Assembly: GCA_015523565.1 (NCBI GenBank)
Contig: WAKA01000004.1
Coordinates: 1 to 22,536, forward strand
DNA from: Candidatus Heimdallarchaeota archaeon
GTDB taxonomy: Archaea; Asgardarchaeota; Heimdallarchaeia; Heimdallarchaeales; Kariarchaeaceae
Reading direction: 5' to 3'
DNA: 22,536 bases
Below, piece by piece: positions 1-19,923 of the stretch. The notes under the pieces are model-generated. The model was not told where the DNA came from. It searched no databases and saw only the letters and a list, made by a program, of their open reading frames with translations. A program made the translations under genes and the position numbers. Position 1 is the first letter of the stretch; each line of letters opens with the position of its first letter.

Positions 1-620
1 AACAGCTCGACAGCCTGATGGAAGAGATAGTTAAAAATTATTTGATATACAAAGAATTCAAAAATCAACTTGATGCATATTTGGCTCGAAAGGACAGGTT
101 AGTCCCTGTGGAAACCATAGAGCAGTTGGAAGAGAAAATCCTCAAGAGAGCTGAAGGAATTGCCAAGAAGAAAAACGTAAATCCAGCAGGCAAAACCTAT
201 ATCACGCAAGAACAGCTTGACAGCCTGATGAAGAAGATATTTAAAGATTATTTAACACATAAAGAATTCAAGAATCAACTTGATGCATATTTGGCTCGAA
301 AGGACAGGTTAGTCCCTGTGGAAATCATAGAGCAGTTGGAAGAGAAAATCCTCAAGAGAGCTGAAGGAATTGCCAAGAAGAAAAACGTAAATCCAGCAGG
401 CAAAACCCATATCACACAAGAACAGCTCGACAGCCTGATGGAAGAGATAGTTAAAATATATTCTGCATATAAAGCAGAAAAAACACATATTACACAAGAA
501 CAGTTCGATTACGTAATGGAAGAGATATTTAAAAAATATTCGACATACCAACCAGGCAAAACTTATATCACGCAAGAACAGCTCGACAGCCTGATGGAAG
601 AAATATTTAGATCCTATACA
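1..620 (+). repeat. In-frame tandem repeats within rpoA2: two 210-bp (70-aa) units (1-210, 211-420), then 78-bp (26-aa) period units starting at 421, 499 and 577
   Basis: The anchor aacag(c/t)t(c/t)ga recurs at 1, 211, 421, 499 and 577. By hand count units 1 and 2 differ at 14 of 210 positions. The peptide KT(H/Y)ITQEQ(L/F)D..M..I recurs. Confidence 0.95.
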
Positions 621-3053
621 TTTGCCGAAATGGAACCTGGCACATCTGCGGGGGTTGTTTCTGCACAAAGTATTGGAGAACCAGGAACACAAATGTCATT
701 GAGTGGAGATGAGATTGTCCTAATAATGGATGAAAACGTTGTCCAGACGGTGTTCATTGGTGATTTCATTGATGAGCTATTGATGAGCGAAAAAGTAGTC
801 AAGCAGGGGGATACGGAATACCTTGATTTTCCAGAAGATTATCACGTCTATGTGCCTGCTGTTTCTGAAGAGGAAACCATCCAATGGAAAAGACTGAAAC
901 AGGTCAGTAGACATGCACCAAATGGAGATCTTCTCCACGTTAAAACCGCAAGTGGTAGGCAAATCATTGCCACACCAAGTCATTCCTTCATTACACGAAA
1001 GAATGGAAAAATCGTTGCGGTTCGTGGAGATCAACTTACAACAGAAGATTTTGTCCCAATTGCGATGGGCATACCAACAATCAATCCAATTTCCACAATC
1101 TATTTTGAGGAAGACAGCGTCAGGTTGGGACACACAGTTATTGAACAGGCATTGGTAACACCTCAAGGAGAGATTGTGGCACCTTCAGAAAGCTCAAGCA
1201 AGTTTTCCCTTCCTCTGACAGAGACATGGGGATATTTCTTGGGAACATTGATAACAGTGGGATACAATGACGGGGAAGAACTCACGATTGCATCATCCAA
1301 TCCCAATATTTATGAGGAACTTGTGGCATATTTTGAAGAAAATGACCTTAATGTATCCTTGGCGAGAGACCATGTGGAAAACCAACTTTATGAAATTAAA
1401 ATTACAGGAGAGGATCTTGCCTATGCAATGGACTTGTTGATTGATTCCTTTGATGAAGGGACTTCCACTCCTGTTTGGGTATTGAATACGCCAAATGATT
1501 TCATTAAAGGGTTTATCCAAGGAGTTTTCGATCATGGAGCAGATGTAGAAAACGGCATTGTTTTCAAATTCCAAAACCCCGACTTTGTTAAGCTTCTTGC
1601 CCATATGCTTGGAAAGTTTGGCATATTTGCATTGATTGACACCCAATCTGAAACGTCATCCCTTCAAATACCAGTTGAAATGCTTAATCAATTCAATGAT
1701 GTTGTTGGATTTAGGTCACCTTCGAAAGCAAATGACCTATTGACAAAGATTTCCCAAGTTGGCAGAAAAGATTCTGTTCCCGGACTCAAAGAAACATTGA
1801 ACCAATTAAAATCAAAATTGGGAATTGATTTAGAAATCAAGGATGCGATCAGCAGGGAAGAAATTCTTGAAATTATTAAGAAAGCCCAGGAAGCAGAAAA
1901 TACAGATGAGGAAATACAGCAACTTGTCAAGGCATATGAAAGCCCCATTTATTGGGATCGCATTGTCTCAATAGAATATGAGAAACCATTTACAAAATAT
2001 GTTTATGATTTTGCGGTAGAAGGTTTGGAGACATTTACAACCTTTGATGGCATCATCACCCACAATACCTTGAGAACTTTCCACTTTGCAGGGGTCAGGG
2101 AAATGAATGTCACATTGGGGCTTCCTAGACTTATTGAACTGGTGGATGCAAGAAGAAACCCAAGCACCCCTTCGATGACCGTTGCTCTCAAAGGAGAATA
2201 TGCCTCGGATGAGACAAAAGCAAAACAGGTTGCACAGAATATCGAACTTACAACCATCCATAGCGTGGCAAAAGGGCTTGAAATAGATCAAATACATCTC
2301 AGGGTCAATATCTTGCTTGATGAAGAACTCCTGATTGATAAGGGAATTACTGCGGAAGATATCAAGCAAAAGATCATTGAAAAAAGAGTTGCACAAAAGG
2401 TCATGGTCGAAGAAAATCTGATTATTGTTACACCAGACAAGGAAGACCCGACACTTCAAGACCTTCAAAAACTTTCTGAAAAACTCAGGCTTATACCCAT
2501 TAAGGGATTGCGAGGAGTAAACAGGGTGATGATCCGTAAGAAAAAGATTGATGAGGGAGATGACGAAAAAGTCGAATATGAAATACTTACGGAAGGAAGC
2601 AACTTTAAGCAATTGATGAGGGTTCTTGGAGTCGATCCAAGAAACTCATATACAAACCACATCCATGAAATTGCAGAAACCTTGGGTATTGAAGCCGCAA
2701 GAAATGCAATCATCAAGGAAGCAAAGGAAGTCATGGAAAAACAGGGGCTTGAAGTTGATGACAGACATATGATGCTGGTGGCTGATCTGATGACGTTTTC
2801 TGGAGATATCAGACAAATAGGAAGACATGGTATCTCTGGAGAAAATGCATCAATCCTTGCAAGAGCAGGGTTTGAAGTCACAGTCAAACACCTGCTTGAC
2901 GCGGCTGTCAGAGGAGAAGAGGATCACCTTGTCGGCATCATTGAAAATGTCATTGTAGGTCAAGAAATCGCAATAGGCACTGGGATGGTTGATTTGACCA
3001 TTTCTCCAAATTATAGGGAATTCGCACCCAAAAAACAAAACAAATCGTCGTAA
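3..3053 (+). CDS. rpoA2: DNA-directed RNA polymerase subunit A'' (Rpo1C, or the C-terminal part of a fused Rpo1), intein-containing, 5'-truncated by the window edge
   Basis: Hallmark motifs SAQSIGEPGTQM|TLRTFHFAG, NVTLGLPRLIELVDAR, LGIEAARNAI, VDDRHMMLVADLMT, IGRHG, ARAGFE and ENVIVGQ..IGTG. The frame is open from base 3 (QLDSL before the ATG at 18), so the true start is probably upstream of the window. Confidence 0.97.
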   Translation, partial: QLDSLMEEIVKNYLIYKEFKNQLDAYLARKDRLVPVETIEQLEEKILKRAEGIAKKKNVNPAGKTYITQEQLDSLMKKIFKDYLTHKEFKNQLDAYLARKDRLVPVEIIEQLEEKILKRAEGIAKKKNVNPAGKTHITQEQLDSLMEEIVKIYSAYKAEKTHITQEQFDYVMEEIFKKYSTYQPGKTYITQEQLDSLMEEIFRSYTFAEMEPGTSAGVVSAQSIGEPGTQMSLSGDEIVLIMDENVVQTVFIGDFIDELLMSEKVVKQGDTEYLDFPEDYHVYVPAVSEEETIQWKRLKQVSRHAPNGDLLHVKTASGRQIIATPSHSFITRKNGKIVAVRGDQLTTEDFVPIAMGIPTINPISTIYFEEDSVRLGHTVIEQALVTPQGEIVAPSESSSKFSLPLTETWGYFLGTLITVGYNDGEELTIASSNPNIYEELVAYFEENDLNVSLARDHVENQLYEIKITGEDLAYAMDLLIDSFDEGTSTPVWVLNTPNDFIKGFIQGVFDHGADVENGIVFKFQNPDFVKLLAHMLGKFGIFALIDTQSETSSLQIPVEMLNQFNDVVGFRSPSKANDLLTKISQVGRKDSVPGLKETLNQLKSKLGIDLEIKDAISREEILEIIKKAQEAENTDEEIQQLVKAYESPIYWDRIVSIEYEKPFTKYVYDFAVEGLETFTTFDGIITHNTLRTFHFAGVREMNVTLGLPRLIELVDARRNPSTPSMTVALKGEYASDETKAKQVAQNIELTTIHSVAKGLEIDQIHLRVNILLDEELLIDKGITAEDIKQKIIEKRVAQKVMVEENLIIVTPDKEDPTLQDLQKLSEKLRLIPIKGLRGVNRVMIRKKKIDEGDDEKVEYEILTEGSNFKQLMRVLGVDPRNSYTNHIHEIAETLGIEAARNAIIKEAKEVMEKQGLEVDDRHMMLVADLMTFSGDIRQIGRHGISGENASILARAGFEVTVKHLLDAAVRGEEDHLVGIIENVIVGQEIAIGTGMVDLTISPNYREFAPKKQNKSS
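696..2066 (+). mobile_element. Intein (457 aa) in RNAP A'' with a degenerate LAGLIDADG homing endonuclease domain
   Basis: Interrupts GEPGTQM|TLRTFH. It starts with Ser (SLSGDEIVLI, block A), has block B (IATPSHSF), blocks F/G (VYDFAVEGLETF...IITHN) and a +1 Thr. Endonuclease-like blocks are YFLGTLITVG, FIQGVFDHGA and LLAHMLGKFGI. Confidence 0.95.
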
Positions 3054-3553: not shown

Positions 3554-4192
3554 TCAGGAAGCCATTTTTATTAAATAATACTTTTTGCGAAGCTTGAAAA
3601 ATTTCTTGGCAAATTCCGTCTCACTAATCTCAACATCATCAAATTGATCTTCCAATTGATCCAAGGCAGTTTCCAGATCCAATAAGGTATCTTCAACCAA
3701 TTGTTTCCTATTGATTTCATTGACTGGACTATTCTGCACTTGCATCAATTCTTTTTGTTTTTCTGCAATCATTGCTTCCAATTGTTGAACTTGGGTTTTT
3801 AATGCCTCCTTCTGAAGATTTAGCCCTGTGGAATGGGATGGGGAACTGGCAATTATCTGGAGACGACCACCCCTTATCAAGGTTTCTGCTTCTTTAATTA
3901 TCTGGAAAACATGGTAGTCAGACCTCCATCGCCTCATTCGACGAGTATGGAGATACCCTTCAGGATCCGCACTAGGATGACTCCCATTCAAGATTCGAAC
4001 AGAAGGGGGACGGTGAGGAAAATCATGGGGAATCTCTACAAGTACTTCGACAGGGTTACCAGAAGAATCCGATATGCGTCCAATCCATCTATGCAAGTTT
4101 CCGTGATCAGGAGAAAATCCAGCATTATACCTGTATATTAAAAATGCCTCTTTGCTTAGGGTAGCATCATCAACCATTTTCAATTTCATCAT
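3554..4192 (-). CDS. UEV (catalytically inactive E2 fold) + coiled coil + Vps23/Vps37 core-like C-terminus; ESCRT-I-like subunit
   Basis: E2-fold pattern W.G.I...V.VEIPHDFPHRPPSVRI...HPSADPEGYLH...W, with no catalytic Cys (the protein has no Cys). A heptad coiled coil LKTQVQQLEAMIAEKQKELMQ follows. The C-terminus LDQLEDQFDDVEISETEFAKKFFKLRKKYY resembles the Vps37 Mod(r)/Vps23 steadiness-box hairpin. Confidence 0.75.
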   Translation of the reverse strand: MMKLKMVDDATLSKEAFLIYRYNAGFSPDHGNLHRWIGRISDSSGNPVEVLVEIPHDFPHRPPSVRILNGSHPSADPEGYLHTRRMRRWRSDYHVFQIIKEAETLIRGGRLQIIASSPSHSTGLNLQKEALKTQVQQLEAMIAEKQKELMQVQNSPVNEINRKQLVEDTLLDLETALDQLEDQFDDVEISETEFAKKFFKLRKKYYLIKMAS

Positions 4193-4260: not shown

Positions 4261-6285
4261 TCAAATTACGCTTTTTTCGACATCTGTTGGAAGGAGAACA
4301 CCACCTTTGAGTTTTGAGCCTATGTCCCTCGGCGAGTGAACAATAATCTTTTTACCCTGAAAATCGTTAAGAATATTTTCAAGTGTTAAACCAGAAGTAT
4401 GACCACTAAGAGATATCTTGTGAACTGACTGGGAATATTTGTCCTTTACTTTTGGGTTGGAGGTTAAAAGCTGATACCCCAAGGTATTTGGAGCTTGATA
4501 ACCTGTGATGATAACACCCGTTTCACTGTCATCACTTGTAGCATCCAAAAGCCTACGGATGGTACCCGCTTGGAGCATGCCATTACCGGAAATGACTATC
4601 GTGTTTTCGGTAAATTCTTCCTCACTAAGAGTGGGAACCATCTCAACCTTGTTTTTTATACCATCAGGGAGAAAATTGAATTGCAGATTTCGAATAACTT
4701 TAACACCCATTCCTGCAACATATATTTTCCATTTAGGATCTATCCCCTGTCTAAGCAATTGATAAAGCACCTCTTGAGTTCGACCCACACTAAATGCAGG
4801 GATAAGAACCCTTGAAGAGGACGAAAGAACTTCATGATAGACTTGGGCATTATCTATTGGTTCTTTTGGACGACCATAATAAGTTCCATCAAACAAGATT
4901 GCACGTTGCTCCTCAATTGGAAATTTTGCCCCAGGGAAAAATGCAGTCCCATCTGCATTGAAATCACCAGTGTAGAACAATGTCTTTCCACCAATTTCAA
5001 GATTAAAACCTGTTGAACCAAAAAGATGCGAGGCTTGAAATGCAGTGACATCAAAATTTGGCAAGACAGAGAAGGATTGACCCGTCTCAATCTCATTGAT
5101 ATTTTGAAGGGCAGAGATTATATTTTTGCCAGAAACAATTTCTGAAATAAATTTATTGCCATGTATTGCATTTGTAGACCATGTCGACTTTAGCACATTT
5201 GCCGTATCATTCCAAAGAATTTCACATAGTGCGCGTGTCTCTTTTGTCGCGAATATTGGAATATCTGGCTTGATTGACTGAAGCAACGGCAATGCACCAG
5301 AATGATCAAGATGGGCATGGGAAAGAAGCACAGCGTCAACCTTCTGTAAAATAGGAAGCCAAGAGGGAATGCGGTTGTTGAGAACACTCATGCCAAAATC
5401 AAGCAGAATTAGACCATGCCTAGTTTTAACCAATATGGCTGAATGACCAATGTGGCTACCGCCCGGAAAATATAATTGTATCTGTTCCTCCACTTCTGGA
5501 CGAGAAAACGTAAATTTTGGTAACCATTCCATCAAATACCGCTGTGGAATTTTCAACGCAAGATTTGCATCAAATGGATTTTGAGGAAGATCCTGCATTT
5601 TATTTCCAAGTACAGTGAACGATGGAGGAAAATCCGAAAGAAAAGTATCTGATCGAAAATCATCGTCCACGGATTTCCAAGACTTGTATTTTCGAGTCTT
5701 TCTTTTTAACAATTCATCAACAACTGGAACTGCATCCTTTGGATAGAGCCATTGAATCAATTGCTCCAAAGTTTCAGTTGCATACTCGGAAATATGTTCC
5801 ATAAATGCATCTGGTCTTTTGGAAAGAGTTGCAACAATTGAACTGATTTCTTGAATTGATGTGGAAACATTCTTGCCTGTAAGAGAAACATAGGATTCAA
5901 CCAAGTCAGGCAAATATGGAAAACCAAGTGAAAGTTCCCAAAAAATTTGTTTTGCCTTTCCGAACCAATCGTCTTCATTAGCATCCATCAACAAGGAAAC
6001 AAATGCGACTTTTTCCTTTTCAGCAAAAACATCTTTTGAGAGTAAAATTTTTACAAAACTTACAAGTTCCTCATAGCGAAGTTCATCACGGGAATACAGG
6101 ATAGGTACAGAAACCAAGAAAATTTCAGGGTCATCTAATTCGCGAATATTCCACAAGGTTTCCTGGATTACATCCACCAAACCATCGATAGTCAGGTTAT
6201 TTTCCCGTAACCAATTGTCAAAATTCCAATTTTTTTGATGAATGGATTTCACTATTTCGAAAAAAGACTTATGCTCTTTTGTCAC
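4261..6285 (-). CDS. Metallo-beta-lactamase/beta-CASP ribonuclease (CPSF73/aCPSF-like) with a ~265-aa N-terminal extension
   Basis: GG..IG.SA, LLDFG, SHAHLDHSG (HxHxDH), ASHLFGS, YTGDF, DGTY, VLIPAFSVGRTQE, GYQAPNTLG, LSGH, IVH. GTG start. Confidence 0.9.
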   Translation of the reverse strand: MTKEHKSFFEIVKSIHQKNWNFDNWLRENNLTIDGLVDVIQETLWNIRELDDPEIFLVSVPILYSRDELRYEELVSFVKILLSKDVFAEKEKVAFVSLLMDANEDDWFGKAKQIFWELSLGFPYLPDLVESYVSLTGKNVSTSIQEISSIVATLSKRPDAFMEHISEYATETLEQLIQWLYPKDAVPVVDELLKRKTRKYKSWKSVDDDFRSDTFLSDFPPSFTVLGNKMQDLPQNPFDANLALKIPQRYLMEWLPKFTFSRPEVEEQIQLYFPGGSHIGHSAILVKTRHGLILLDFGMSVLNNRIPSWLPILQKVDAVLLSHAHLDHSGALPLLQSIKPDIPIFATKETRALCEILWNDTANVLKSTWSTNAIHGNKFISEIVSGKNIISALQNINEIETGQSFSVLPNFDVTAFQASHLFGSTGFNLEIGGKTLFYTGDFNADGTAFFPGAKFPIEEQRAILFDGTYYGRPKEPIDNAQVYHEVLSSSSRVLIPAFSVGRTQEVLYQLLRQGIDPKWKIYVAGMGVKVIRNLQFNFLPDGIKNKVEMVPTLSEEEFTENTIVISGNGMLQAGTIRRLLDATSDDSETGVIITGYQAPNTLGYQLLTSNPKVKDKYSQSVHKISLSGHTSGLTLENILNDFQGKKIIVHSPRDIGSKLKGGVLLPTDVEKSVI

Positions 6286-6421
6286 TAATTATGATAAAAA
6301 TGGGAGATATTTATGTATCTCTAAGAAGAAAGAAGTAAAAAAAAAGATTTCACAAGTTAGTATTGCAATATTTGCTTATAGAGATATTTAATAATATGAA
6401 CTTCCTGTGGTATTTAGAAAA

Positions 6422-7210
6422 ATGAGCGAAGAAACTAGCGCAGTAAAGAGGACACTCAAATTCATCGTACAAAATATCGATAAGCTAAGAGAGCAAGTGG
6501 GGCTTAAATTTGCTGAGATCGAACAACAATTGGAATTGTTCCAAAAAGAAATCAACACCATAAAAGGGCAGGTTGAAAATATCAAAAGTATAGTGACGAA
6601 ACCTCAAGCTACCTCTGAATTTACACAATTGGCACAACGCCTTGATTCATTAGAAAAGGCAGTTGCATCACTCAGTTCAACAATCCATACACCACAACAA
6701 ACATCAACATATATTCCCACACCACCTGTCAGACAGCAAATGCCACCACCAGTTTCTCCACAACCCACAGTACCAAGTTCTGCAGGAGTTATCCCACCAG
6801 CACCCACGGGTAGACCACCAACACCACAGCCAACCCCTACACCATCACCTGCACAAACACCAAGACCAACGACCATTCCTTCACCAACGCCACAGCCAAC
6901 CTCTACACCATCACCTGCACAAACACCAAGACCAACAACCATTCCTTCACCAACGCCACAGCCAACCACCACACCGTCACCCACCACTCCTCCACCAGCG
7001 CAAACACCGCAACCAGCCCCCATTTCCCCACCAACGCAAACGCCATTGTCACCAACCAAACCTACCACACCAACCCAACCACATACAACAACGCCTACAA
7101 CCACTACAATTCCAAAAACTAGCAGTATTTCTACAAAGAAACCGTCAATTGACTTGACAGACGACAAAAAAGAACTTATGGAAGCATTGAAAAGAATTGA
7201 AGGAATTTAA
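6422..7210 (+). CDS. Hypothetical protein: N-terminal coiled coil, ~150-aa Pro/Thr-rich linker, C-terminal amphipathic helix
   Basis: ORF 6407-7210; the ATG at 6422 is preferred over the GTG at 6407. Heptad pattern in the first ~85 aa, a low-complexity P/T/S/Q middle, and the end DDKKELMEALKRIEGI. Confidence 0.8.
   Translation: MSEETSAVKRTLKFIVQNIDKLREQVGLKFAEIEQQLELFQKEINTIKGQVENIKSIVTKPQATSEFTQLAQRLDSLEKAVASLSSTIHTPQQTSTYIPTPPVRQQMPPPVSPQPTVPSSAGVIPPAPTGRPPTPQPTPTPSPAQTPRPTTIPSPTPQPTSTPSPAQTPRPTTIPSPTPQPTTTPSPTTPPPAQTPQPAPISPPTQTPLSPTKPTTPTQPHTTTPTTTTIPKTSSISTKKPSIDLTDDKKELMEALKRIEGI
6818..6982 (+). repeat. 66-bp (22-aa) coding tandem repeat, 2.5 copies (PTPQPTxTPSPAQTPRPTTIPS)
   Basis: Near-identical units at 6818-6883 and 6884-6949, plus a partial unit at 6950-6982. 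Confidence 0.9.
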
Positions 7211-7259: not shown

Positions 7260-7778
7260 GTGAACTTAATTCAACTTGACTATGAGTTAACTAAAAAAAT
7301 AGCCACAATAATGCCTGAAAAATCCATCATACGTCCAATCATACGATTGTTTACGCATACAGGAACCTTCATGTTTTGGGCACCACTATTAATTGCCTGG
7401 TATTTTGTCTCACCTGGAAATTGGCAGATTCCGTTTCTTATTGCACAAACAATTAACATGTTAATGGTTCAAGTTTTGAAAAGAATGATTAAAAGAGAAA
7501 GACCTGAGTTTGGAGATCATAGTATGGGAGTTGTAAAGTTTGATGTGCATAGCTTCCCTTCAGGACACAGTGCAAGAGCAGGACTCATAATGGTAACCTT
7601 ACCATTTATTTTTCCACATTGGACTGTCTTTTGGATAGTTTATGCAATTGCCCTAATGATTTCCCGGTTGCTTTTAGGATTGCATTATGTAAGTGACATC
7701 CTCGCAGGACTTCTATTGGGATTCTTGTCTGCCCTTTTTCTTCTTCCCTTTTCTTTTTTTGCTCCGCTTTTTGGGTAA
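7260..7778 (+). CDS. PAP2-family membrane (lipid) phosphatase
   Basis: All three PAP2 motifs are present: K......RP (KRMIKRERP), SFPSGH and SR...G.HY.SD. Several hydrophobic helices. Confidence 0.93.
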   Translation: MNLIQLDYELTKKIATIMPEKSIIRPIIRLFTHTGTFMFWAPLLIAWYFVSPGNWQIPFLIAQTINMLMVQVLKRMIKRERPEFGDHSMGVVKFDVHSFPSGHSARAGLIMVTLPFIFPHWTVFWIVYAIALMISRLLLGLHYVSDILAGLLLGFLSALFLLPFSFFAPLFG

Positions 7779-8357
7779 TATTTCAGATTGCACTTCCATT
7801 TCAGGAATTGGTTCTTCTTCAACACCCTTCACTAATTTTTCCTGTTGTTTAAGATATTCATCCTTTGCCATCAATGAAATAACAGTGGCACTGGCAACCA
7901 AAAGCCAGTTGAAAACTTGCGTTTCTACATTCTCACCCATTTCAAACAATTCCCAAGGACGATCCGTCACTCTTTGCAAACTCAATGCCTCCATCACCTG
8001 TGACTTTGAGAGGCTCCCCAACTTAGAACTATCAGGAATGACAAGAGCCACAGGTTTTGGAATTCCCTGCCAAACGAAATACTCCCAAAAGTTTCTTCTC
8101 ATCTCACTGACATTTTCATCGTTGATATCCAAAACGAGTGCAATACCATCTATCTCAGGCATTTTGTTAGGAAATCGAAAACCTTCCAAGCTGTCAACTT
8201 CAATCAAATCCCAGTTAATTGTTTTCACATCTTCGTCTTTTGGAGAAAGCTCTATCAACTTTTGCAGTAAGGGACTTGTTTTCCCCACCCTGATGAAAAG
8301 AAAATCAAGCCTGCCATAGTCATTACGCTCCAGTAAAAAATTAAGCAACCGTTTCAC
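7713..8357 (-). CDS. Arf-family small GTPase-like protein with degenerate nucleotide-binding motifs (pseudo-GTPase)
   Basis: Collinear similarity to Arf: GKTS.LLQKL, INWDL, IDGIALVLDINDENVSEMR, VALVI, LSKSQVMEALSLQRVTDRPWELF, VFNWL. GTG start with GGAGG upstream. G1, G3 and G4 are not canonical. Confidence 0.6.
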   Translation of the reverse strand: MKRLLNFLLERNDYGRLDFLFIRVGKTSPLLQKLIELSPKDEDVKTINWDLIEVDSLEGFRFPNKMPEIDGIALVLDINDENVSEMRRNFWEYFVWQGIPKPVALVIPDSSKLGSLSKSQVMEALSLQRVTDRPWELFEMGENVETQVFNWLLVASATVISLMAKDEYLKQQEKLVKGVEEEPIPEMEVQSEILPKKRSKKRKGKKKKGRQESQ

Positions 8358-8433
8358 AATTCCTGTTGCCTCCTACCACTTAAATAAAGATTGATAGCGA
8401 CAGTTCACAATAAAGCAAGAAATAAAAAGACTT

Positions 8434-9078
8434 ATGATAGAAGTAACATACGTGAAAAAAATAATTGTCATTTCAATCTTGTTCATCATTGCATTTTCAA
8501 CACTCCAAGCAAATGCCTATAGTGAGAAAAACGGTATTGAAAGGGGAGATAACGTAAGAATGGCATATAAGGGAGTATTGCCAAATGGAACCGTGTTCGA
8601 CCAAAAAGACGACATAGTGTTCAAAAACATGGATTATGGAAACTATATCGAAGGATTTGTTGACAATGTCCTTGGAATGAAAATAGGGGACAAAAAAACT
8701 TTTGATGTACCCCCTGAAAAGGGATATACAAATCCAGACCATTACCTATATGGCTTTACACTTCGTTTTACCGTTGAGATCTTGGGAATTGAAGGATACA
8801 CACCAGGACAAGACAATGGAAACCAAAAATCAGAGAATTTCATTTCAAAAACGTTTACCTTTGCCGCATGGATTTTTGGAATCATATTAATCCCAGTGGT
8901 TGTTGTGGGAACTTATAGATTCCTCAATGAAAAAGTTGTGAATAAGGCGGCACATATATGTGCAATAGGTGGAGAAAGGGCAGACGGAATTTGTACAAAG
9001 TGCGGAACACCCTATTGCAGATCCCATTTTATCAAAGGATGTCAAAAGTGTGGTGGTGTCACACTCCAACCAAAGTGA
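8434..9078 (+). CDS. Membrane-anchored FKBP-type peptidyl-prolyl isomerase with a C-terminal Cys/His zinc finger
   Basis: Signal-peptide-like KKIIVISILFIIAFSTLQANA (alternative GTG start at 8452). FKBP motifs GD.V...YKG.L.NGTVFD, I.GF...V.GMKIGDKK...VPPEKGY and TLRF.VEIL. A TM helix follows, then C..G..A...CTKCGTPYCRSH...CQKC. Confidence 0.88.
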   Translation: MIEVTYVKKIIVISILFIIAFSTLQANAYSEKNGIERGDNVRMAYKGVLPNGTVFDQKDDIVFKNMDYGNYIEGFVDNVLGMKIGDKKTFDVPPEKGYTNPDHYLYGFTLRFTVEILGIEGYTPGQDNGNQKSENFISKTFTFAAWIFGIILIPVVVVGTYRFLNEKVVNKAAHICAIGGERADGICTKCGTPYCRSHFIKGCQKCGGVTLQPK

Positions 9079-11171: not shown

Positions 11172-11912
11172 TCATTTGGAACCAAATATCCTGTTCTTGA
11201 GTGGAGTATAAATCTCATCCCGTAGAGTATCAATCCATAGGGTAATGGGATCCAAGATTCTTACATTTCTTTTCTCAATCATGAAAGTGAAAAGAATAGT
11301 CCCGACAAACCCCAATGGTTCTCCCATCCTGTCGTGGGCAAGAGTCCAGGCATACTCATGGGAAACACCAAAATCATATGAAAGGACAGTTGTAATGGCA
11401 ATCATGGCGGCAATCCTGAGGGTATTGCCAATGAACAGGAAAAGCAGAACCAAAAAGGAAGCATTGATCCTGTCCTTTATTTTCGCGGGTGTTGACCAGA
11501 TCAAACCCAACAACAACGACCCTGCCTGCATCCCTGTACAAGCACGGACAATAATGTAATAATTGGGTACACCAACCTCACCTTCAATGGAAATTGCAGG
11601 ATATGTGGCTCGCGAAGAGTCATAAAGATTGTAAAGTATCCGATCAACGAAACCAAGAGCAGAGGTTTGGTCTTCATAGATGAAAAGCCGTGGGTTAAAA
11701 CCAAATATGTTCAGGAAGAAATAGCTAACCTTAGTTGTCAGCATTTCCAGACCAAAATATGGGGGGAATACATAAAGCACCACGGTCATCATGAATGTAA
11801 ATCCAAAAGAATATAATGCATAGTTTCTTCTTTCTTTGCCCTTCAGCGTAAGTAATGGATGGGAATCATCTTCAGTTGGAATCAGTCTTTCAAAATCAGG
11901 TAGTTCCAGCAT
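11172..11912 (-). CDS. Archaeosortase/exosortase family transpeptidase
   Basis: Catalytic triad motifs IIVRACTG (Cys), GNTLRI (Asn/Arg) and LAHD (His) in a multi-TM protein. The ATG at 11912 with upstream GGAG is preferred over the GTG at 11936. Confidence 0.85.
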   Translation of the reverse strand: MLELPDFERLIPTEDDSHPLLTLKGKERRNYALYSFGFTFMMTVVLYVFPPYFGLEMLTTKVSYFFLNIFGFNPRLFIYEDQTSALGFVDRILYNLYDSSRATYPAISIEGEVGVPNYYIIVRACTGMQAGSLLLGLIWSTPAKIKDRINASFLVLLFLFIGNTLRIAAMIAITTVLSYDFGVSHEYAWTLAHDRMGEPLGFVGTILFTFMIEKRNVRILDPITLWIDTLRDEIYTPLKNRIFGSK

Positions 11913-11997
11913 ACATTTTTCTCTCCTTTTATTCACTTAAATAACTATCCTTTCTGGAATACTACAAAGATAAACAGACATGTCTTCTTTTGACAGG

Positions 11998-12701: not shown

Positions 12702-14258
12702 ATGTTAATTGGTCTTGTAAGAAGACTGGGTGAGATTAAATCCAATCAGTCTGAACGAATAATACTTGAGACAGCCATTAAAAATCAAAAACCATACAAA
12801 CAGAAGGAGTTCTTCGCGGTTGACGTAAACCTTGAAGATGGGCAATATAAAATCCATCTTGAAGAATATGATTCAAATAAAGAATTATTATATCTCAGGG
12901 GTATTAAGGGAGGTCATTCGGAAAACTTATCTCCAGTCCTCAATGTTAAACCAAAAGAAAAAGAGAAGGAAAAGATACTCAATATTTCGAAGTTTCCTTC
13001 TGAAAATACATTGTTTCGAAAATATGGTCTGAAAAGAGAGGAGTTCCCAATTTATACAAATTTGATCAGATGGTTTGAAAACAAAAAGGAAAATATCCAA
13101 GAAGACATTCAATCACTAATAACACAGAACTACATAAACGAGAAAACAAAAAAAATTGGAAATAATGCCCCTACAATGGTTGTTTTTAAAGTGTTAAAAG
13201 ACGGAGACCATTGTTATCCTGGAGAAATTGATGAGTTTGTACAAGCATACCTCCACATGAATACACCGCCAAAACCAAAAAAATCACAAATTGGCACATG
13301 CATGGCCTGTGGTCAGAAAAAACCATTGACAACCACAAAAGACATTAAAACAGACCTTTTTGAATTCTTTTCCCTTGATTTGAATAATTTTATTATAGGA
13401 ATGGATAATTCCAAAACATGGCAATTGACCCTTTGCTTGGATTGTCAAGACCTTGTAAAACTAGGACTTTCTGTGTTGGACAATGAATTGAAATTCAGGG
13501 CATACACAAAAAAAATTGATTCCAAAAAAACCTTGTTTGTTGATCATTCACTTCTGCCAACTGCTTATGGGGAACAATTAGTTATCCAAGTAATAAACAA
13601 TTTGAAAAAAATCAGAAGGGAAAAATCAGAAGAGGAAAGACAGTCCATCCGTAAAGAAATAGAAGAGATCCAGCAAAGGATGGAAAGAGCAAACAAAAAA
13701 GCAATAAGAAAATTGAAAAGTGAGCTAAAGAAAAAGGAAGAGACATTTGGTAAAATAAAAGACTTTGCACAGATTGATGAAAGAGAGGTGTTGAAACAGT
13801 TTGCTGAAAAAGGAGTATCGTATGTGGACCTCTATTATATCAATGAATCTGTGGGGGTTGGAAACTCAAAAAAGGTATTCATGGACATGACATTTGTCAA
13901 TGCCAAAACTCTGAAGGAACTTTTGACACAGATTGACAGGATTGAACAGGAATTCGCAAGCAAAAACCTCCTTGTCTGGAAAGGAAAACCATACAGGTTT
14001 GAATTCGGAAAATTATATTCACTGTTCACCATAAAGATGGCAGACTTAGTCAGGAAAGCATTACTTACAAGAATCACTGTCAAGGAAAGAGAATTGGCAA
14101 GAGATGCCTTGAAAAGCTTAAGAGACCCATTTTTGAAACTTAATGCAGGGATTGATAAAAACATATGGATCAGTAGGGAGGAATACCATCAACGACTCAG
14201 CACTTTCCTCTTTGTTGACCAACTGTTGAATTCACTCAACCTATTGAAGGAGAAATAA
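12702..14258 (+). CDS. cas8b: CRISPR type I-B large subunit Cas8b (Csh1/TM1802-like), lacking its C-terminal helical domain
   Basis: First gene of the cas operon, upstream of cas7/cas5/cas3. Zn ribbon CMAC...LCLDC, FFSLD..NF, YL.G..G..S.NLSP. GGAGG precedes the ATG. Confidence 0.75.
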   Translation: MLIGLVRRLGEIKSNQSERIILETAIKNQKPYKQKEFFAVDVNLEDGQYKIHLEEYDSNKELLYLRGIKGGHSENLSPVLNVKPKEKEKEKILNISKFPSENTLFRKYGLKREEFPIYTNLIRWFENKKENIQEDIQSLITQNYINEKTKKIGNNAPTMVVFKVLKDGDHCYPGEIDEFVQAYLHMNTPPKPKKSQIGTCMACGQKKPLTTTKDIKTDLFEFFSLDLNNFIIGMDNSKTWQLTLCLDCQDLVKLGLSVLDNELKFRAYTKKIDSKKTLFVDHSLLPTAYGEQLVIQVINNLKKIRREKSEEERQSIRKEIEEIQQRMERANKKAIRKLKSELKKKEETFGKIKDFAQIDEREVLKQFAEKGVSYVDLYYINESVGVGNSKKVFMDMTFVNAKTLKELLTQIDRIEQEFASKNLLVWKGKPYRFEFGKLYSLFTIKMADLVRKALLTRITVKERELARDALKSLRDPFLKLNAGIDKNIWISREEYHQRLSTFLFVDQLLNSLNLLKEK

Positions 14259-14261
14259 AGC

Positions 14262-14705
14262 ATGACCGAAAAATCTTTTGAGGAAAAACTTAGGGAAGAC
14301 AATGCATTCCTTGAGAAAATCTTCAACACAAACTATTTTGAAAACAGACCTGATAGGCAATTGGCTTACCTTGTCGGAAGATATTATTCAAAAGCCACCT
14401 ATCTGCAACAGAGGGAGCTAAAAACAAATAGCCTCATTAAGAAGCTTCCTAATTTCACCAAACGACTAGATCTGCAAAAGATCAATTCAATGATGAACGA
14501 ATGCAATCTGGTGCTGCAGAAAATAGCATCAATGAAGAAAACCAGCAATGTGATGCTTGCAGACCTTAGGAACAGAATTTTTGACCTAATGCAAGCCATT
14601 GAGGAAATCACCAGCGACCATAATGAGCTGGGAATTGCATTCCAAATGGGCTACGACAGCTCACTTGCACAGTTAAGAACTGAAGAGGAGGAAAACAAAA
14701 AATGA
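14262..14705 (+). CDS. cas11: Cas11-like small subunit (equivalent to the Cas8b C-terminal domain), encoded as its own ORF
   Basis: 147-aa all-helical protein between cas8 and cas7. AYLVGRYYSKATYLQ and AFQMGY match the Cas8b/Cas8c C-terminal (Cas11) pattern. AAGGAG precedes the ATG. Confidence 0.7.
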   Translation: MTEKSFEEKLREDNAFLEKIFNTNYFENRPDRQLAYLVGRYYSKATYLQQRELKTNSLIKKLPNFTKRLDLQKINSMMNECNLVLQKIASMKKTSNVMLADLRNRIFDLMQAIEEITSDHNELGIAFQMGYDSSLAQLRTEEEENKK

Positions 14706-15625
14706 ACAAAAGAAGAGAAATCGTATTCATTTATGATGTAAGAGACAGTAATCCAAACGGAGACCCCGATGACCAGAACAGACCAAGAATGGACGAAGAC
14801 GACTATAACGTTGTCACTGACCTAAGACTCAAAAGAACAATCAGAGACTATTGGTTGACAAAAGAGTCGGAAGGAAACCAAGTCTTGGTAAGAAGAAAAG
14901 TCGTGGAAAAAGATGGAACAGTCATGTCAATGAAACAATTGATTAAGGATGCTCTTGCAATAGACAAAGTAGAGGGTGATACCCGCGAAAAGATCAGAAA
15001 GGGACTCCCTGAAAAATTTGTTGATGTAAGGGCATTCGGAGTTGTAGGAACCGTAGAAGGCGCAAATGTTGCATTGACGGGCCCTGTACAGTTCTCCATT
15101 GGAAGATCAATGAACAAGCCAACCATCAAAAGCTATTCCATCTCATCAACAATAGCCTCTGAAGAAGGAAAAGGACAGGGATCATTGGGAGAGTTCCATA
15201 CCATAGACTATTCACTCATCAAGTTTCATGGCATTGCCTGTGAATACAATGCAAAAGAAACCAATTTCACAGAAGATGACCTCAAATATGTCTACGAGGG
15301 AATGTGGAACGGAACCAAAAGACTCAATACCAGAAGCAAAGTCAACCATGTTCCAAGACTTCTTTTGGCGGTTGTTTCCAAAGAAAGAGAATTCCAAATT
15401 GGAGACATAGATAAGGGATTGATCCTTGAAAATGAGGAAGGAATCAAAACACCTGACCAAGCAATCGTCAATATTTCCGGTTTACTTCAAAGGCTCAACC
15501 AATTCAAGAATTCCATTGATTCAATTGAATTGAAGGAGGACGGAACATTGACATTTACTGACGGCTCAAAAACCTCCCAAAAAATAGAAGATTTTCTTGG
15601 AGGATTCAATATCATCCATATCTAA
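14702..15625 (+). CDS. cas7: CRISPR-associated Cas7 (Csh2/Cas7b family)
   Basis: NPNGDPD..NRPRMD, VTD.RLKRTIRDY, DVRAFG, TGPVQFS.GRS, MWNG....TRSK....PRLLL. ATGA overlap with the upstream gene. Confidence 0.95.
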   Translation: MNKRREIVFIYDVRDSNPNGDPDDQNRPRMDEDDYNVVTDLRLKRTIRDYWLTKESEGNQVLVRRKVVEKDGTVMSMKQLIKDALAIDKVEGDTREKIRKGLPEKFVDVRAFGVVGTVEGANVALTGPVQFSIGRSMNKPTIKSYSISSTIASEEGKGQGSLGEFHTIDYSLIKFHGIACEYNAKETNFTEDDLKYVYEGMWNGTKRLNTRSKVNHVPRLLLAVVSKEREFQIGDIDKGLILENEEGIKTPDQAIVNISGLLQRLNQFKNSIDSIELKEDGTLTFTDGSKTSQKIEDFLGGFNIIHI

Positions 15626-15637
15626 GGAGGTCAGGGC

Positions 15638-16486
15638 TTGAAAGCATTGGTGACCACCATCCAAGGGGATTTCGCCCATTTCAGGGTTCCTGAAACCACA
15701 CGGGAAAACTTGAGCTATCCATTCCCACCAAAAACTGCAATCATCGGAATGTTTGCCGCCACTTTAGGAATTCAAAAAAATGAATATTGGGACGAAAACC
15801 ACCCTTTGCAATCACTAAAGGTCGCCTTGGAAATCATCAACCCCTTGAAAAGAACTTTTATGAAAGTCAATTACATCAGAGTAAAGGAAATAATCAACAT
15901 TACAAGAGGAACAAAAATTTTCTTGCCTGAAGACCCTTTTGCCACAGAACTTATTGAATTAAAAGGAAAGGAATACAAGAAAAAGAAAGACTTCTCAAAA
16001 TATAAAATGGGAATGAATGCACCCTTCAAAATGAACATGATGAAGGACGTCGCCTATAGGATATATGCAACAACAGACAACAAGGAACTATATGATGAAC
16101 TGAAACAAAGATTCATTGACAGGAAATTCACTTTCCCGCCATATCTGGGACATGCAAACCTGTTGGCACACTGGGTTTATGAAGGGGAATACGAAATAAA
16201 ACCAATCTACGAAATGGATAAAATCGAATGCCATTCAATCGTTCCCTTCTCAGCTTTGGATATGCAACGGGAAACATACGACCTGTCGGGAATCCCTGTC
16301 ATTTATAATGTCCCAATGACCATGAAAGCGGTCAATCCCAAGAAAAAGATTTCAATCTGGAACATGATCGTCGACAAAACAGATTCAGTATTCCTTGTCA
16401 GACCAGATGAACCTTTTGTCGGATATTTCAAGAAGGGACATGCATATACTGTCAAGGATATTGAAAAAACCATTACCTTCCTATAG
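15638..16486 (+). CDS. cas5: CRISPR-associated Cas5 (type I-B)
   Basis: GDFAHFR.P......SYPFPPKTAIIGMFAA.LG, DV.YRIY, F.PYLG. TTG start preceded by AAGGAGGT. Confidence 0.93.
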   Translation: MKALVTTIQGDFAHFRVPETTRENLSYPFPPKTAIIGMFAATLGIQKNEYWDENHPLQSLKVALEIINPLKRTFMKVNYIRVKEIINITRGTKIFLPEDPFATELIELKGKEYKKKKDFSKYKMGMNAPFKMNMMKDVAYRIYATTDNKELYDELKQRFIDRKFTFPPYLGHANLLAHWVYEGEYEIKPIYEMDKIECHSIVPFSALDMQRETYDLSGIPVIYNVPMTMKAVNPKKKISIWNMIVDKTDSVFLVRPDEPFVGYFKKGHAYTVKDIEKTITFL

Positions 16487-19054
16487 GTGAACCATTTGGA
16501 AGAGTCCAAATTACATGACTTCCCCTATGGAAAAATACTTTGGGCAAGACCAGACCAACCATTGGAACAGCATCTATCCAGCTTGAGAAAAAATATCCAC
16601 AAATATAAATTCAAGATTCCATTTTTCCAATTGCCCTCAGATGCATTGGGAATCCAAAGTGATGAGACAATCCACCTGCCACATTGGCTGGTTATGGACT
16701 TGATGAGCATCCTTGTCGCCTGCCATGATTTCGGGAAGTTGTCCCCGCATTTCCAATATAAAATCATCGGCAACAAACTCCCAAAGCAGCAAATCGCATT
16801 AAGCTACCATACAAAGACCAGCGGGTTTTTCGCCTATTACCTCTTGGACGAATATTTCCATCAGTACAAGAAGGAAATCGTGAATAATTTGCCAGACAGC
16901 AGGATATTCAAAATCATCAGGGACACCTTCACAGCAAGTATAACCTATTCAATCATCAACCACCATACACCAAAACTGAGCACAACATTGGGTGAAAAAA
17001 TCGAACTTGAAAATGAAACACTCATAACCATTGCATTGCTGGTCAACCATGTCTATCCACAAAAGTTCATTGTCGACATCCCAAATGAAGTGCACAATAA
17101 AGAGTCATCAGTGGCAGAACTGCTGCAAGCCGCATTGAAATTGTCGAAACCAGCAGAACACATCATTGAGAAGGCACTTGAAAGACTTAAAGAACTAGTA
17201 GACCCAATTGATTTGGAAATCACACTTGAAACAACAGATATCAGGGAGATGGATACCAATTGGCTTTATGACCTTTATGACGAACTGGAAGAATTGTGGG
17301 AACAAACACAGGAAAAACCCTTGCTCTTCAATGCATTCCTTTTCATGCATTCCATGCTTGGAAACCTGGATGAATGGGATGCCCGAACATTCCACCAAAA
17401 TTCCGACCAGCATGACGACGAATTTGATTGGGACTATAACTGTTTCATGCCTTTTGACTCAGTTGACAGATTTAGGATCAAAAAGTTTGGATCAATCAAT
17501 AACCATGATGAACGATCCGCAAGAATAATTTCGCTCAGAAACAACCTCTATGAAAATGTCAGGGACACATCCATTCCTGACAACCCATCTGCATTCATAA
17601 TCGAGGCACCGACAGGAGCCGCTAAAACATTGGCAATGATAAATCTCGCCCTTAAACTCGCAAAAAAGCAACACGGACAGACAGGTAAAACCCCCCGCAT
17701 CATCTACGCCCTTCCGTTCGTGTCAATCACCGATCAAGTGGGAGAAGTAATCAAAGAGGTATTGAAGCAAAACAACATTTCCACTAAAAACCTGATCGTC
17801 CACCACCAGTACTCTGAATTCCCAGAATATGTGTTCGAACCCATGTTTGACGAGGACAAGGAAGAGGTCACAATTACACGGGCATTAACTGCAACTAAAC
17901 TATGGCATGCACCCATTATTGCAACAACATTCGTCTCACTCATGAACACCATATTTTCAGGAGTAAAAAGATCAATCCTAAGATTCCATAGGATTGCAGG
18001 ATCAATCATCATCCTCGATGAGGTGCAGTCAATTCCGCCAAGGCATTGGGAAATCGTGTCAATGACCCTAGACCATCTAATAAGGCATTTCAACAGCAAT
18101 ATCATCATCGGGTCCGCCACCAATCCAAAACCGCTCTCAAATTCAATCAGGAACACCGTGAAAATAAAGCCAGACACAAAACCATTGCAAATGGTCAACA
18201 GGTATACACTGAAAATAGAACATCAACCCCAGACAATCGATCAATTCATAGAAAGATTTTCAGAACCCGTAACCACAATGATCGTTGTCAACACAAGAAA
18301 ATCCTGCAGGACAATCTATGACAACCTGATCAAGAAATTCCCTGAAAACCATGTATTCCTCCTGTCAACTTGGCTAAGACCTATTGACAGAAAAAGAACA
18401 ATCAAGACCATCCAGCAAAGACTGAAACACAATTTGACCACAATCCTCGTCACCACACAGGTTGTTGAGGCAGGAGTGGACCTAAGTTTTGATACAGTCT
18501 ACAGGGATTTTGCACCCCTCGATTCAATAATCCAAGTCGCAGGAAGATGCAACAGGAATTTCGAAAGGGAAATGGGAACCGTAAACCTCATCAACCTCGT
18601 AAATGAAAACAACAGCCCATTTGCACCGTTAATCTATGACAAGGTCTCACTGGAAGCAACTAAGGAACTACTTGAAAATGTCACTGAATTGGATGAACTG
18701 GAACTCAGAAAATTAACCCACAGGTATTACAGCAACATTGCTCAAAGAAGAGTCACATCAAAGGCACTCAAGGAAAGAATGATAACAGACATTCCAAAAC
18801 TGAGCCAGACATTCAAGCTTATCGAGGAAAGACCACAAACAAGCCTTGCCATTGTCCCCAAACGCTACCTCCAAATACTGAACTTCCAAAGGAAAACAAC
18901 AATAAAAGTCCTTAACCTTTTCACAATTGCAATAAGCCATAATGACCTGAAAAACATCAAGCACAAAAAGAGAAAAATCTCAGGAACAGAGGTGCGAATC
19001 ACCACAATAGAGGAATGCGACAACTATAGCAAAAAAGCAGGCTTGTCCGTCTAG
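16487..19054 (+). CDS. cas3: CRISPR-associated Cas3 (HD nuclease fused to SF2 helicase)
   Basis: HD domain L.QHL, CHDFGK, INHH, LD..DA. Helicase APTGAAKT, IIYALPF.SITDQ, ILDEVQ, SAT, VVNT, TQVVEAGVD.SFD, APLDSIIQ.AGRCNR. Confidence 0.96.
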   Translation: MNHLEESKLHDFPYGKILWARPDQPLEQHLSSLRKNIHKYKFKIPFFQLPSDALGIQSDETIHLPHWLVMDLMSILVACHDFGKLSPHFQYKIIGNKLPKQQIALSYHTKTSGFFAYYLLDEYFHQYKKEIVNNLPDSRIFKIIRDTFTASITYSIINHHTPKLSTTLGEKIELENETLITIALLVNHVYPQKFIVDIPNEVHNKESSVAELLQAALKLSKPAEHIIEKALERLKELVDPIDLEITLETTDIREMDTNWLYDLYDELEELWEQTQEKPLLFNAFLFMHSMLGNLDEWDARTFHQNSDQHDDEFDWDYNCFMPFDSVDRFRIKKFGSINNHDERSARIISLRNNLYENVRDTSIPDNPSAFIIEAPTGAAKTLAMINLALKLAKKQHGQTGKTPRIIYALPFVSITDQVGEVIKEVLKQNNISTKNLIVHHQYSEFPEYVFEPMFDEDKEEVTITRALTATKLWHAPIIATTFVSLMNTIFSGVKRSILRFHRIAGSIIILDEVQSIPPRHWEIVSMTLDHLIRHFNSNIIIGSATNPKPLSNSIRNTVKIKPDTKPLQMVNRYTLKIEHQPQTIDQFIERFSEPVTTMIVVNTRKSCRTIYDNLIKKFPENHVFLLSTWLRPIDRKRTIKTIQQRLKHNLTTILVTTQVVEAGVDLSFDTVYRDFAPLDSIIQVAGRCNRNFEREMGTVNLINLVNENNSPFAPLIYDKVSLEATKELLENVTELDELELRKLTHRYYSNIAQRRVTSKALKERMITDIPKLSQTFKLIEERPQTSLAIVPKRYLQILNFQRKTTIKVLNLFTIAISHNDLKNIKHKKRKISGTEVRITTIEECDNYSKKAGLSV

Positions 19055-19059
19055 ACATT

Positions 19060-19923
19060 TCAGAGCATATGAACCATGGTTTTACGCAAAAATACCCTGT
19101 CAAAGTCAAAACGCCCCAAACCCGCGGAACGCCCTCGTCCAACACCAGTCAAGAACCCCAATTTCAGTAAATGAAACATGATTTCGGCGGCATCCGCACT
19201 GTCCGCACCAAGCTTGACCAACCCAACCCAACCCTTATGAACCTGATCCTTGCCCGTATGAACTGTAATGATGGAACCCTTGGCATAGTGCAAACTAACA
19301 TGGTCATGCATGTATTTGACAGTGCTCTCCTCGTCAATTGCATTGTCAGGATACCAAACATTCCAGATGGACACCAAATTGGGAAAAATATACTTGGGAT
19401 CAGGCCATACAAAGAAACTGGAACCAGTACTGAAAGAAACAGGAGTCTGGAAACGAATGGCAACAGGATTTCCCAATTTTACCCCACCAAGCCTCGTGAT
19501 ATCAAAAGGAACCAATTGCAATGGCTCAAGAACCAAACCATCGTATTCTGCCCTCCAATTGCCTGAAAATACCTTCGGAATGACACTTGAAAGGGAATCA
19601 TTGCAGGTTGCCACATCCATGTACACAATCTCCCCCTCTTGCAATCCCGAATCCTTCGATCGCCTTCTCATCGGTGCACCAAAAGCAGTCCGCATCCTGT
19701 TGAGCAGGTCATTGCCAGACGAAGAAGGAAAATGAACCTTGCCAAATTGAGTCAACGAATAATCCAAGATCCCCTCCTGATCATGGACATCTTTCGCCAA
19801 ATGAGAATCATAGGCATCCAATGCCTTGAAAAACATGCCACGAGCCATGGCTCCCGAAAAACGGGGAATGGTTCCAAATGCCGCAGTCCTGAAAAACAAC
19901 CTGAAGTACTTGACTTCTCCCAC
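19060..19923 (-). CDS. cas6: CRISPR-associated endoribonuclease Cas6
   Basis: C-terminal Gly-rich loop GVGRGRSAGLG, RFQTPVSF, PDP..IF.NL...WN, GW.G.V, and an N-terminal A..VHD......YSL. Convergent with cas3. Confidence 0.9.
   Translation of the reverse strand: MGEVKYFRLFFRTAAFGTIPRFSGAMARGMFFKALDAYDSHLAKDVHDQEGILDYSLTQFGKVHFPSSSGNDLLNRMRTAFGAPMRRRSKDSGLQEGEIVYMDVATCNDSLSSVIPKVFSGNWRAEYDGLVLEPLQLVPFDITRLGGVKLGNPVAIRFQTPVSFSTGSSFFVWPDPKYIFPNLVSIWNVWYPDNAIDEESTVKYMHDHVSLHYAKGSIITVHTGKDQVHKGWVGLVKLGADSADAAEIMFHLLKLGFLTGVGRGRSAGLGRFDFDRVFLRKTMVHML

Follow-up and report, generated by a model that had tools for sequence, protein, structure and literature searches.

In the accessible text of the Asgard Arf literature (bioRxiv 10.1101/2024.02.28.582541; AArfs, PMC11914678), these proteins are GTP-switching and have conserved G boxes, and the same text names no native partner. 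The Asgard ArfRs HodArfR1 (8OUK/8OUL) and GerdArfR1 (8OUM/8OUN) have the Arf fold and an N-terminal amphipathic helix without Gly2, both of which are common to the protein described here, termed pseudo-Arf. An a3 Trp and a b5 Pro are further shared with the Hodarchaeales-type ArfR clade. However, Asgard ArfRs keep the motifs G1–G5, bind GTP/GDP and have an interswitch that toggles, whereas pseudo-Arf lacks all G motifs, switch I and strand b2 and, unlike them, is tied to an operon encoding AAA+, vWA and HEAT-repeat proteins.

Eukaryotic class I pseudoGTPases, including AAGAB, CENP-M, dynein LIC and the p190RhoGAP pG domains (PMC12490416), represent a second point of comparison. They employ a G fold without nucleotide motifs as a binding module, and pseudo-Arf appears to do likewise. 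In AAGAB, the partner sits on the side facing away from the nucleotide pocket (PMC12490416), the same location that is predicted for pseudo-Arf by modelling. The partner of AAGAB is a longin sigma subunit, whereas that predicted for pseudo-Arf is a HEAT solenoid, and profile, Foldseek and VIA-align searches returned no AAGAB match; as far as tested, the two have independent origins. A G fold, degenerate motifs and purifying selection would place pseudo-Arf in this class, and its sequence suggests that it is also blind to nucleotides.

An Arf back side resting on a helical solenoid is known from Arf1, which contacts AP-1 gamma adaptin via W172, A136 and A137 (PMC5540999). This contact is an auxiliary allosteric one made by GTP-loaded Arf (PMC5540999) and is not used in COPI (PMC5482573). 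Pseudo-Arf W151 aligns with Arf1 W172 and lies in the predicted interface, whereas the positions aligning near A136/A137 lie outside it. The likeness is one of back-side solenoid contact and is not founded on homology between the HEAT protein and adaptin.

The genes accompanying pseudo-Arf resemble the AAA+/vWA modules MoxR/RavA-ViaA and chelatase I/D and the PrkA/YeaG-YeaH-SpoVR/YcgB trio: here an AAA_5/Mg-chelatase-like ATPase is followed by a DxSxS vWA protein and a probable zincin-fold protein. In AAA+/vWA pairs, the ATPase pulls on its client via the vWA protein. The present operon differs in that its genes are without a Pfam PrkA/SpoVR match, show atypical Walker motifs and are joined by extra HEAT and pseudo-Arf genes. 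AAA+/vWA modules are not known to include HEAT or pseudo-Arf subunits.

The window analysed in this study is a stretch of 22,536 nucleotides on contig C4 of the 3.57-Mb genome of a Candidatus Heimdallarchaeota archaeon (Kariarchaeaceae). An initial annotation of its sequence had proposed a nucleotide-independent Arf-fold protein with a possible membrane-binding helix and a polybasic tail. On the evidence presented below, pseudo-Arf probably does not switch but works as an adaptor, permanently paired with a HEAT-repeat protein, in the service of an AAA+/vWA remodelling machine.

Gene structure and conservation

The coordinates of the gene, its motifs and its neighbours are collected in Table 1. 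The intact 214-aa frame and the upstream GGAGG reported in the initial annotation were both recovered; the latter sits within a 76-bp gap common to the pseudo-Arf gene and the divergent FKBP gene. Four close homologues (54–58% identity) share the start codon and have their C-terminus at 175–180 aa, compared with 214 aa in the window protein. The closest homologue belongs to MAG J059, a member of Kariarchaeaceae according to the table of the ArfR preprint. An identical protein is present on 3 contigs. The gene can be regarded as expressed-looking and conserved rather than as a pseudogene, with the purifying selection seen in relatives.

Table 1. Position of the pseudo-Arf gene, its sequence features and associated genes (window coordinates unless a contig is given)
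Feature	Position	Strand	Basis or remark
Arf-fold pseudo-GTPase gene	7713–8357	(-)	214-codon ORF, GTG start; G-domain core at about residues 14–162
N-terminal amphipathic helix, residues 1–11	8325–8357	(-)	Model helix 2–11; hydrophobic moments
Relic P-loop	8277–8285	(-)	First G1 Gly represented by G25; K26-T27 incidental; alignment and column census
Dead G3, DLIE for DxxG, catalytic Gln lacking; preceded by the deletion of switch I and b2	8199–8210	(-)	Motif census
Helix a3 conserved patch R87, W91, E92, W96	8070–8099	(-)	Conservation; 87–88 and 91–92 in predicted interface
Dead G4, PDSS for NKxD	8025–8036	(-)	G4 columns non-canonical across family rows
a4-b6 loop, family signature S126, R129, T131, D132, R133	7950–7982	(-)	Centre of predicted HEAT-binding face
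Helix a5, W151–L162	7872–7907	(-)	W151 aligns with Arf1 W172; predicted interface
Species-specific Lys/Arg tail, residues 194–214	7713–7778	(-)	Overlaps the final 22 PAP2 codons in register, on the opposite strand
GGAGG, putative Shine-Dalgarno-like site	8369–8373	(-)	11 nt 5' of GTG; from sequence
PAP2-family phosphatase gene	7260–7778	(+)	Convergent neighbour; Pfam PAP2 2e-20
FKBP-domain protein gene	8434–9078	(+)	Divergent neighbour; Pfam FKBP_C 6.8e-13
HEAT-repeat protein gene, 267 aa	C219:7183–7986		

Arf fold and ancestry

Profiles were required to place the protein, since the single sequence matched only Arf in Pfam (E 0.087) and nothing in NCBIfam. All 10 weak phmmer matches in the PDB were Arf/Arl proteins, and a profile of 41 family sequences reached Arl1 at 1.8e-9, the Asgard ArfRs 8OUK/8OUL/8OUM/8OUN at E about 3e-7, and also Arl3 and Arf6, in agreement with the suggested retention of the Arf-specific segment order. 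Two matches, P0023 and P0026 (1823 and 1556 aa), consisted of many short stretches and were dropped as repeats. The AlphaFold2 model (pLDDT 86.5, pTM 0.75) runs from an N-terminal helix through b1, a1 and a single strand (46–54) to b4-a3-b5-a4-b6-a5. Its best 50 Foldseek matches were Arf-family entries throughout, and the best VIA-align matches were Arf6, Arl13B and HodArfR1-GDP (Z 12.5–12.9; for HodArfR1-GDP, Z 12.5, rmsd 3.8, 155 aligned). By structure as well as by profile, the fold is thus a small G domain closest to Arf proteins.

Furthermore, hhalign of the family against one Asgard ArfR gave 96.5%, and profile bits were highest for Hodarchaeales-type ArfRs (up to 57.5), followed by eukaryotic Arfs (14–37) and RasL/MglA-type proteins (no more than 12.4). 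The family forms one clade (100/99) in a tree of 112 rows, outside the RasL clade, on a long stem (0.97) and in a fork with ArfR groups that lacks resolution. Arf ancestry is well supported, and the tree leaves the donor ArfR lineage without support. The genome also encodes an Arf-like GTPase with intact motifs on contig C139 (5135–5707), which makes pseudo-Arf an extra paralogue.

Loss of the GTPase motifs

The motif census covered 24 aligned family rows and 68 family sequences in comparison with ArfR and eukaryotic rows. G1–G5 are kept in every ArfR and eukaryotic row and in no family row. The first P-loop Gly had been reported as missing and the GKT taken for an Arf segment, and neither reading held. 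G25, the residue directly after strand b1, occupies the column of the first Gly in GxxxxGK[ST] and is retained in 22/24 rows; the model has the end of b1 at residue 24 and the beginning of a1 at residue 31. The Gly-Lys-Thr columns of G1 are occupied by L-L-Q in the window protein, and the GK[ST] that caught the eye is incidental, being present in only 9 of the 68 sequences, with K26-T27 kept in the window genus. The GxxxxGK[ST] expression matched a single one of the 68 sequences, within a C-terminal tail.

The alignment bore out the reading of DLIE for DxxG and PDSS for NKxD. DxxG occurs in 0/68 sequences, the G2 Thr column is empty in 24/24 rows, G5 is lost across the family, and NKxD-like matches fall at other places of the chain than G4. 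The initial annotation was right that switch I is shortened, but the loss is larger: the segment between the G1 Gly and the b3 Trp spans 24 residues versus 42–43 in Arf/ArfR, which means that switch I and strand b2 are both deleted, and the model has one strand in place of b2-b3. This deletion removes the interswitch toggle, the element by which Arf function is defined (bioRxiv 10.1101/2024.02.28.582541). Given the complete motif loss, pseudo-Arf would neither bind GTP nor switch. Taken with the fold matches, the family-wide loss supports the description of an Arf-fold protein without nucleotide motifs. One orthologue (L053:6217–6819) has about 30 charged residues inserted at the site of the deleted switch I, which suggests that this region is unconstrained.

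Distribution and selection

The survey comprised 400 Asgard genomes, 59 of which belong to five families of the Kariarchaeaceae/Heimdallarchaeaceae/Gerdarchaeales group. Pseudo-Arf is present as a single copy in 57 of these 59 genomes and absent from the other 341 sampled. By family, it was found in 12/12 genomes of the window's family, 1/1 of f2, 30/31 of f3 (including two closed genomes of 3.08 and 3.33 Mb that match Heimdallarchaeum), 3/3 of f4 as divergent copies, and 11/12 of f7 (including a Gerdarchaeales MAG). The two remaining genomes, which lack the gene, have completeness values of 86% and 64%. The f4 orthologues (L044:6262–6738, L110, L111) are more eroded, with a shortened a1 region and loss of W96 and D132. 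Weak matches also occurred in Hodarchaeales and other Asgard genomes; those inspected were Arf-type GTPases with intact motifs and not orthologues.

Median pairwise dN/dS was 0.097 in f3 and 0.148 in f7. These values were taken from relatives rather than from the window copy because dS was saturated against its congeners. Orthologues that have likewise lost the motifs do exist and are under purifying selection. The annotators had known of no characterised archaeal example, and no published one turned up in the literature: pseudo-GTPases and Asgard Arfs are known kinds, and no paper was found on their combination in an archaeal Arf-fold pseudo-GTPase. The accessible supplements of the ArfR preprint hold neither the family motif nor its accessions, and the family may be included as 'unannotated' in its main table.

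Operon and partner genes

The pseudo-Arf gene stands at the head of an operon in 43 or more of 54 genomes; this operon encodes an AAA+ ATPase, a MIDAS-vWA protein, a zincin-like protein with HAxxH and a HEAT protein. By genome-wide coordinates, the vWA gene lies 1.6–1.7 kb downstream of pseudo-Arf on the same strand in 43/54 genomes. Among the 25 loci read, the next same-strand gene encodes a 513–525-aa ATPase in 18, followed, where the contig extends, by genes of 461–480, 503–541 and 249–272 aa. The vWA and HEAT genes are limited to the same five families as pseudo-Arf, a co-occurrence that was counted among kin genomes and does not constitute independent evidence.

The first partner is a chelatase/AAA_5-type (MoxR-type) AAA+ ATPase with atypical Walker motifs (Atlas 0.97; weak AAA_5 and Sigma54_activat matches in 14–15 of 17 members). 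The vWA partner has an invariant MIDAS (D243, S245, S247, T321, D352) with DxSxS. The third partner appears to have a zincin fold, with HAxxH in place of HExxH: nearly all 50 VIA-align rows were zincin-fold proteins (best Z 8.8, rmsd 4.7, 173 aligned), and Foldseek with the 505-aa protein gave no match at E ≤0.001. In the searches with the partner genes, GcvP matches were rejected as an artefact of a glycine-cleavage protein in alignment A3; with alignment A8, which is free of it, no PDB match was significant. Pfam AAA_PrkA (PF08298) and SpoVR (PF04293) had no match at the operon in four genomes, where controls were positive, nor in scans of partner-family members. The likeness to PrkA-YeaH-SpoVR is hence one of architecture only.

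In the window genus and in family f4, the pseudo-Arf gene lies outside the operon. The window genome retains the four partner genes intact on C219:7183–12448, apart from pseudo-Arf, with the chelatase/MoxR-type AAA+ gene adjoining the MIDAS-vWA gene. The first position of the operon, the usual slot of pseudo-Arf, is taken by a gene with a Zn-ribbon-like Cys motif (193 aa, C219:12509–13090 (-), L075), and a congener (L077:9623–10207) shows the same arrangement of the operon with a Zn-ribbon-like gene in first position. In f4, the pseudo-Arf gene is about 5–6 kb from the HEAT gene.

Predicted complex with the HEAT protein

The pseudo-Arf of the window genome was folded together with its unlinked HEAT protein, one of four possible partners. 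The complex model scored 0.79 against 0.00 for the best of 3 controls, although the passing score may owe something to memorised structures, as Arf-solenoid complexes are present in the PDB. The score mark is passed by 58/80 solved and 2/110 mismatched pairs, a calibration that is only rough for a complex folded with custom alignments. At least 84% of contacts are shared between runs, with partner pLDDT of at least 81. The predicted interface comprises residues 87–92, 126–136 and 151–162 and part of the N-helix (residues 4, 7, 8, 10 and 12), that is, the back side, and this face would lie opposite the former nucleotide pocket.

Six of the seven conserved polar residues lie in the predicted interface and face HEAT E98, D122, Y125 and K156, which are conserved at 83–100%; R129 is paired with D122 and Y125 in the model. 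Over all interface columns, the conservation excess is significant on the HEAT side (p 0.009) and not on the Arf side (p 0.09). All interface residues are kept in the congeners (54–58% identity). Family f4 shows a joint change of HEAT E98 and of T131/D132, its neighbours in the model, which counts as a single event; in the one genome aligned, a Tyr occupies the otherwise invariant E98. A role of the invariant D132 as MIDAS ligand of the vWA protein was also considered; D132 lies in the predicted HEAT interface. Collectively, the modelling supports binding of pseudo-Arf to the HEAT protein.

N-terminal helix, polybasic tail and membrane binding

The amphipathic N-terminus noted earlier was confirmed, as the model has a helix at residues 2–11 and its hydrophobic moment (0.59) compares with 0.49–0.61 in canonical Arf/ArfR. 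It is kept in Kariarchaeaceae and Heimdallarchaeaceae and absent in Gerdarchaeales orthologues (moment 0.25–0.28). The polybasic tail likewise exists but is confined to this species: close orthologues end earlier, with a net charge of 0 to -6. The tail coincides exactly, in codon register, with a 66-nt antisense overlap with the PAP2 gene, which adjoins pseudo-Arf in the window genus only, among the loci read. The overlap corresponds to the last hydrophobic stretch of PAP2, whose Phe/Leu codons give Lys on the opposite strand and dictate the tail. Since the PAP2 end is unchanged in congeners, the Arf-like frame is the one that ran on. The tail has 12 Lys/Arg residues versus a mean of 7.5 from resampled PAP2 codons (P about 0.02, post hoc). 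Thus, it is mostly a by-product of the overlap, and the modest excess is compatible with recent tuning.

The chief rival explanation, which is compatible with an adaptor role, holds that pseudo-Arf, its interswitch toggle gone, is mainly a constitutive membrane tether, its N-helix and basic tail anchoring the protein together with its HEAT/AAA+ partners. A helix moment like that of canonical Arfs, kept in two families, agrees with this, and Asgard ArfRs need the N-helix for membrane binding according to the preprint (bioRxiv 10.1101/2024.02.28.582541). Moreover, Gerdarchaeales orthologues, which have lost the helix, mostly carry a Lys-rich tail of their own (net +1 to +10); this looks like anchor swapping and keeps a membrane role open. 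The post hoc excess of Lys/Arg in the window's tail points the same way. However, that tail does not extend beyond the PAP2 overlap, the closest orthologues have none, and the helix residues contact HEAT in the complex model. From residue 2 onwards, the monomer model can be aligned with the GDP form of HodArfR1, which is the folded-back state, and the b2-b3 hairpin, the element that ejects the helix, is lost. Additionally, it is the back side, and not the helix, that carries the conserved residues. Membrane binding via helix and polybasic tail is therefore not supported in the form first proposed, and tethering as the main job is considered unlikely, albeit worth serious attention.

Further explanations

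Rather improbable is a sensor for the AAA+/vWA machine that holds a nucleotide or small ligand in a remodelled pocket. The persistence of G25 in nearly all rows and of K26-T27 in the window genus, together with confident modelling around the former P-loop, would suit such a site, but the P-loop Lys/Thr, G2 Thr, DxxG, NKxD and G5 are gone, and the former motif columns vary freely between subfamilies, unlike an expected ligand site. Even less credence is given to a decoy or regulator of canonical ArfR GTPases that sequesters their GEF, GAP or effectors and is unrelated to the AAA+/vWA genes. Canonical Arf-like GTPases do occur in the same genomes, and the gene stands outside the operon in the window genus; however, such partners read switch I, b2 and the switch II helix, all of them either deleted or degenerate here, the pseudo-Arf family is missing from Hodarchaeales although these possess ArfRs, and the distribution tracks the vWA and HEAT genes. 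Finally, a decaying Arf pseudogene or spurious ORF, as might be imagined from the lost stop codon with read-through into PAP2 and from the separation from the operon, is scarcely credible for an intact single copy in 57/59 genomes with dN/dS of 0.10–0.15 in relatives, 54–58% identity to congeners with every interface residue kept, and an identical protein on 3 contigs.

Other features of the window

The FKBP gene is next to pseudo-Arf in 11/25 loci, is a conserved neighbour in Kariarchaeaceae only and is probably not part of the system. Its product contains two hydrophobic segments, one of them N-terminal, and carries a Cys/His finger at the C-terminus (weak B-box match). The gene at 3554–4192 (-) encodes 212 aa in which a UEV/UBC-like domain at the N-terminus precedes a Mod_r (Vps37-type) region at the C-terminus, both below the Pfam cut-off; this ESCRT-I-like Vps23/37 candidate adjoins rps12 in congeners too. 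At 6407–7210 (+), a coiled-coil N-terminus is followed by Pro/Thr-rich repeats (66-nt unit) and a short C-terminal helix conserved in three genomes, a layout that we take to be reminiscent of a WH2-type actin nucleator. The beta-CASP metallo-beta-lactamase nuclease at 4261–6285 (-) has an N-terminal extension of about 280 aa without Pfam match, and an exosortase/archaeosortase-like membrane protein (weak Exosortase_EpsH match) is encoded at 11172–11936 (-).

At 1–628 (+), the start of the RNA polymerase A'' gene is tandemly duplicated over 210 nt (93% identical) and also has repeats of 78 nt. The intein-carrying ORF has 1011 aa versus 890 aa in congeners, and the extra length is due to an expansion or else to faulty assembly at the end of the contig. 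A Type I-B-like CRISPR-Cas cluster (TM1802/Cas8b, Cas7, Cas5 and Cas3, with Cas6 on the opposite strand) occupies 12702–19923, and a CRISPR array of about 10 repeats at 21848–22536 runs off the contig; cas1, cas2 and cas4 were not seen among window ORFs of at least 80 aa.

Proposed role and significance

The preferred reading is that of an ArfR-derived pseudo-GTPase which would bind no nucleotide and not switch, serving constitutively as an adaptor subunit. The back side of the protein (a3, a4-b6 loop and a5) is predicted to dock on the dedicated 267-aa HEAT-repeat protein. By analogy with AAA+/vWA pairs, the partner ATPase may pull a client via the vWA protein, and the pseudo-Arf/HEAT pair might serve this machine by positioning, stabilising or selecting. 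In the window genus, the gene has left the operon yet most likely serves the machine in trans, since the interface residues are kept.

A bolder extension, to which we attach little probability, is that the contact of the Arf-fold protein with a HEAT solenoid in Heimdallarchaeia shares the back-side mode of Arf1/AP-1 gamma adaptin and pre-dates eukaryotes, with the helix or tail of pseudo-Arf recruiting the AAA+/vWA machine to membranes; this would be an archaeal assembly of Arf, solenoid and vWA proteins made of coat-like parts. With no eukaryotic descendant found and no member in Hodarchaeales-type genomes, the family probably represents a side branch rather than an ancestor of eukaryotic coats.

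The family is an Arf paralogue that became a motif-less module early in Heimdallarchaeia and then remained single-copy. The window adds a split arrangement with a kept interface, the antisense origin of the tail and a corrected reading of the P-loop. The archaeal Arf-fold protein and its predicted partner are small (175 and 267 aa), and with the predicted interface residues named, the pair is testable. It may offer a handle on an uncharacterised AAA+/vWA/zincin-like machine in lineages close to eukaryotes.
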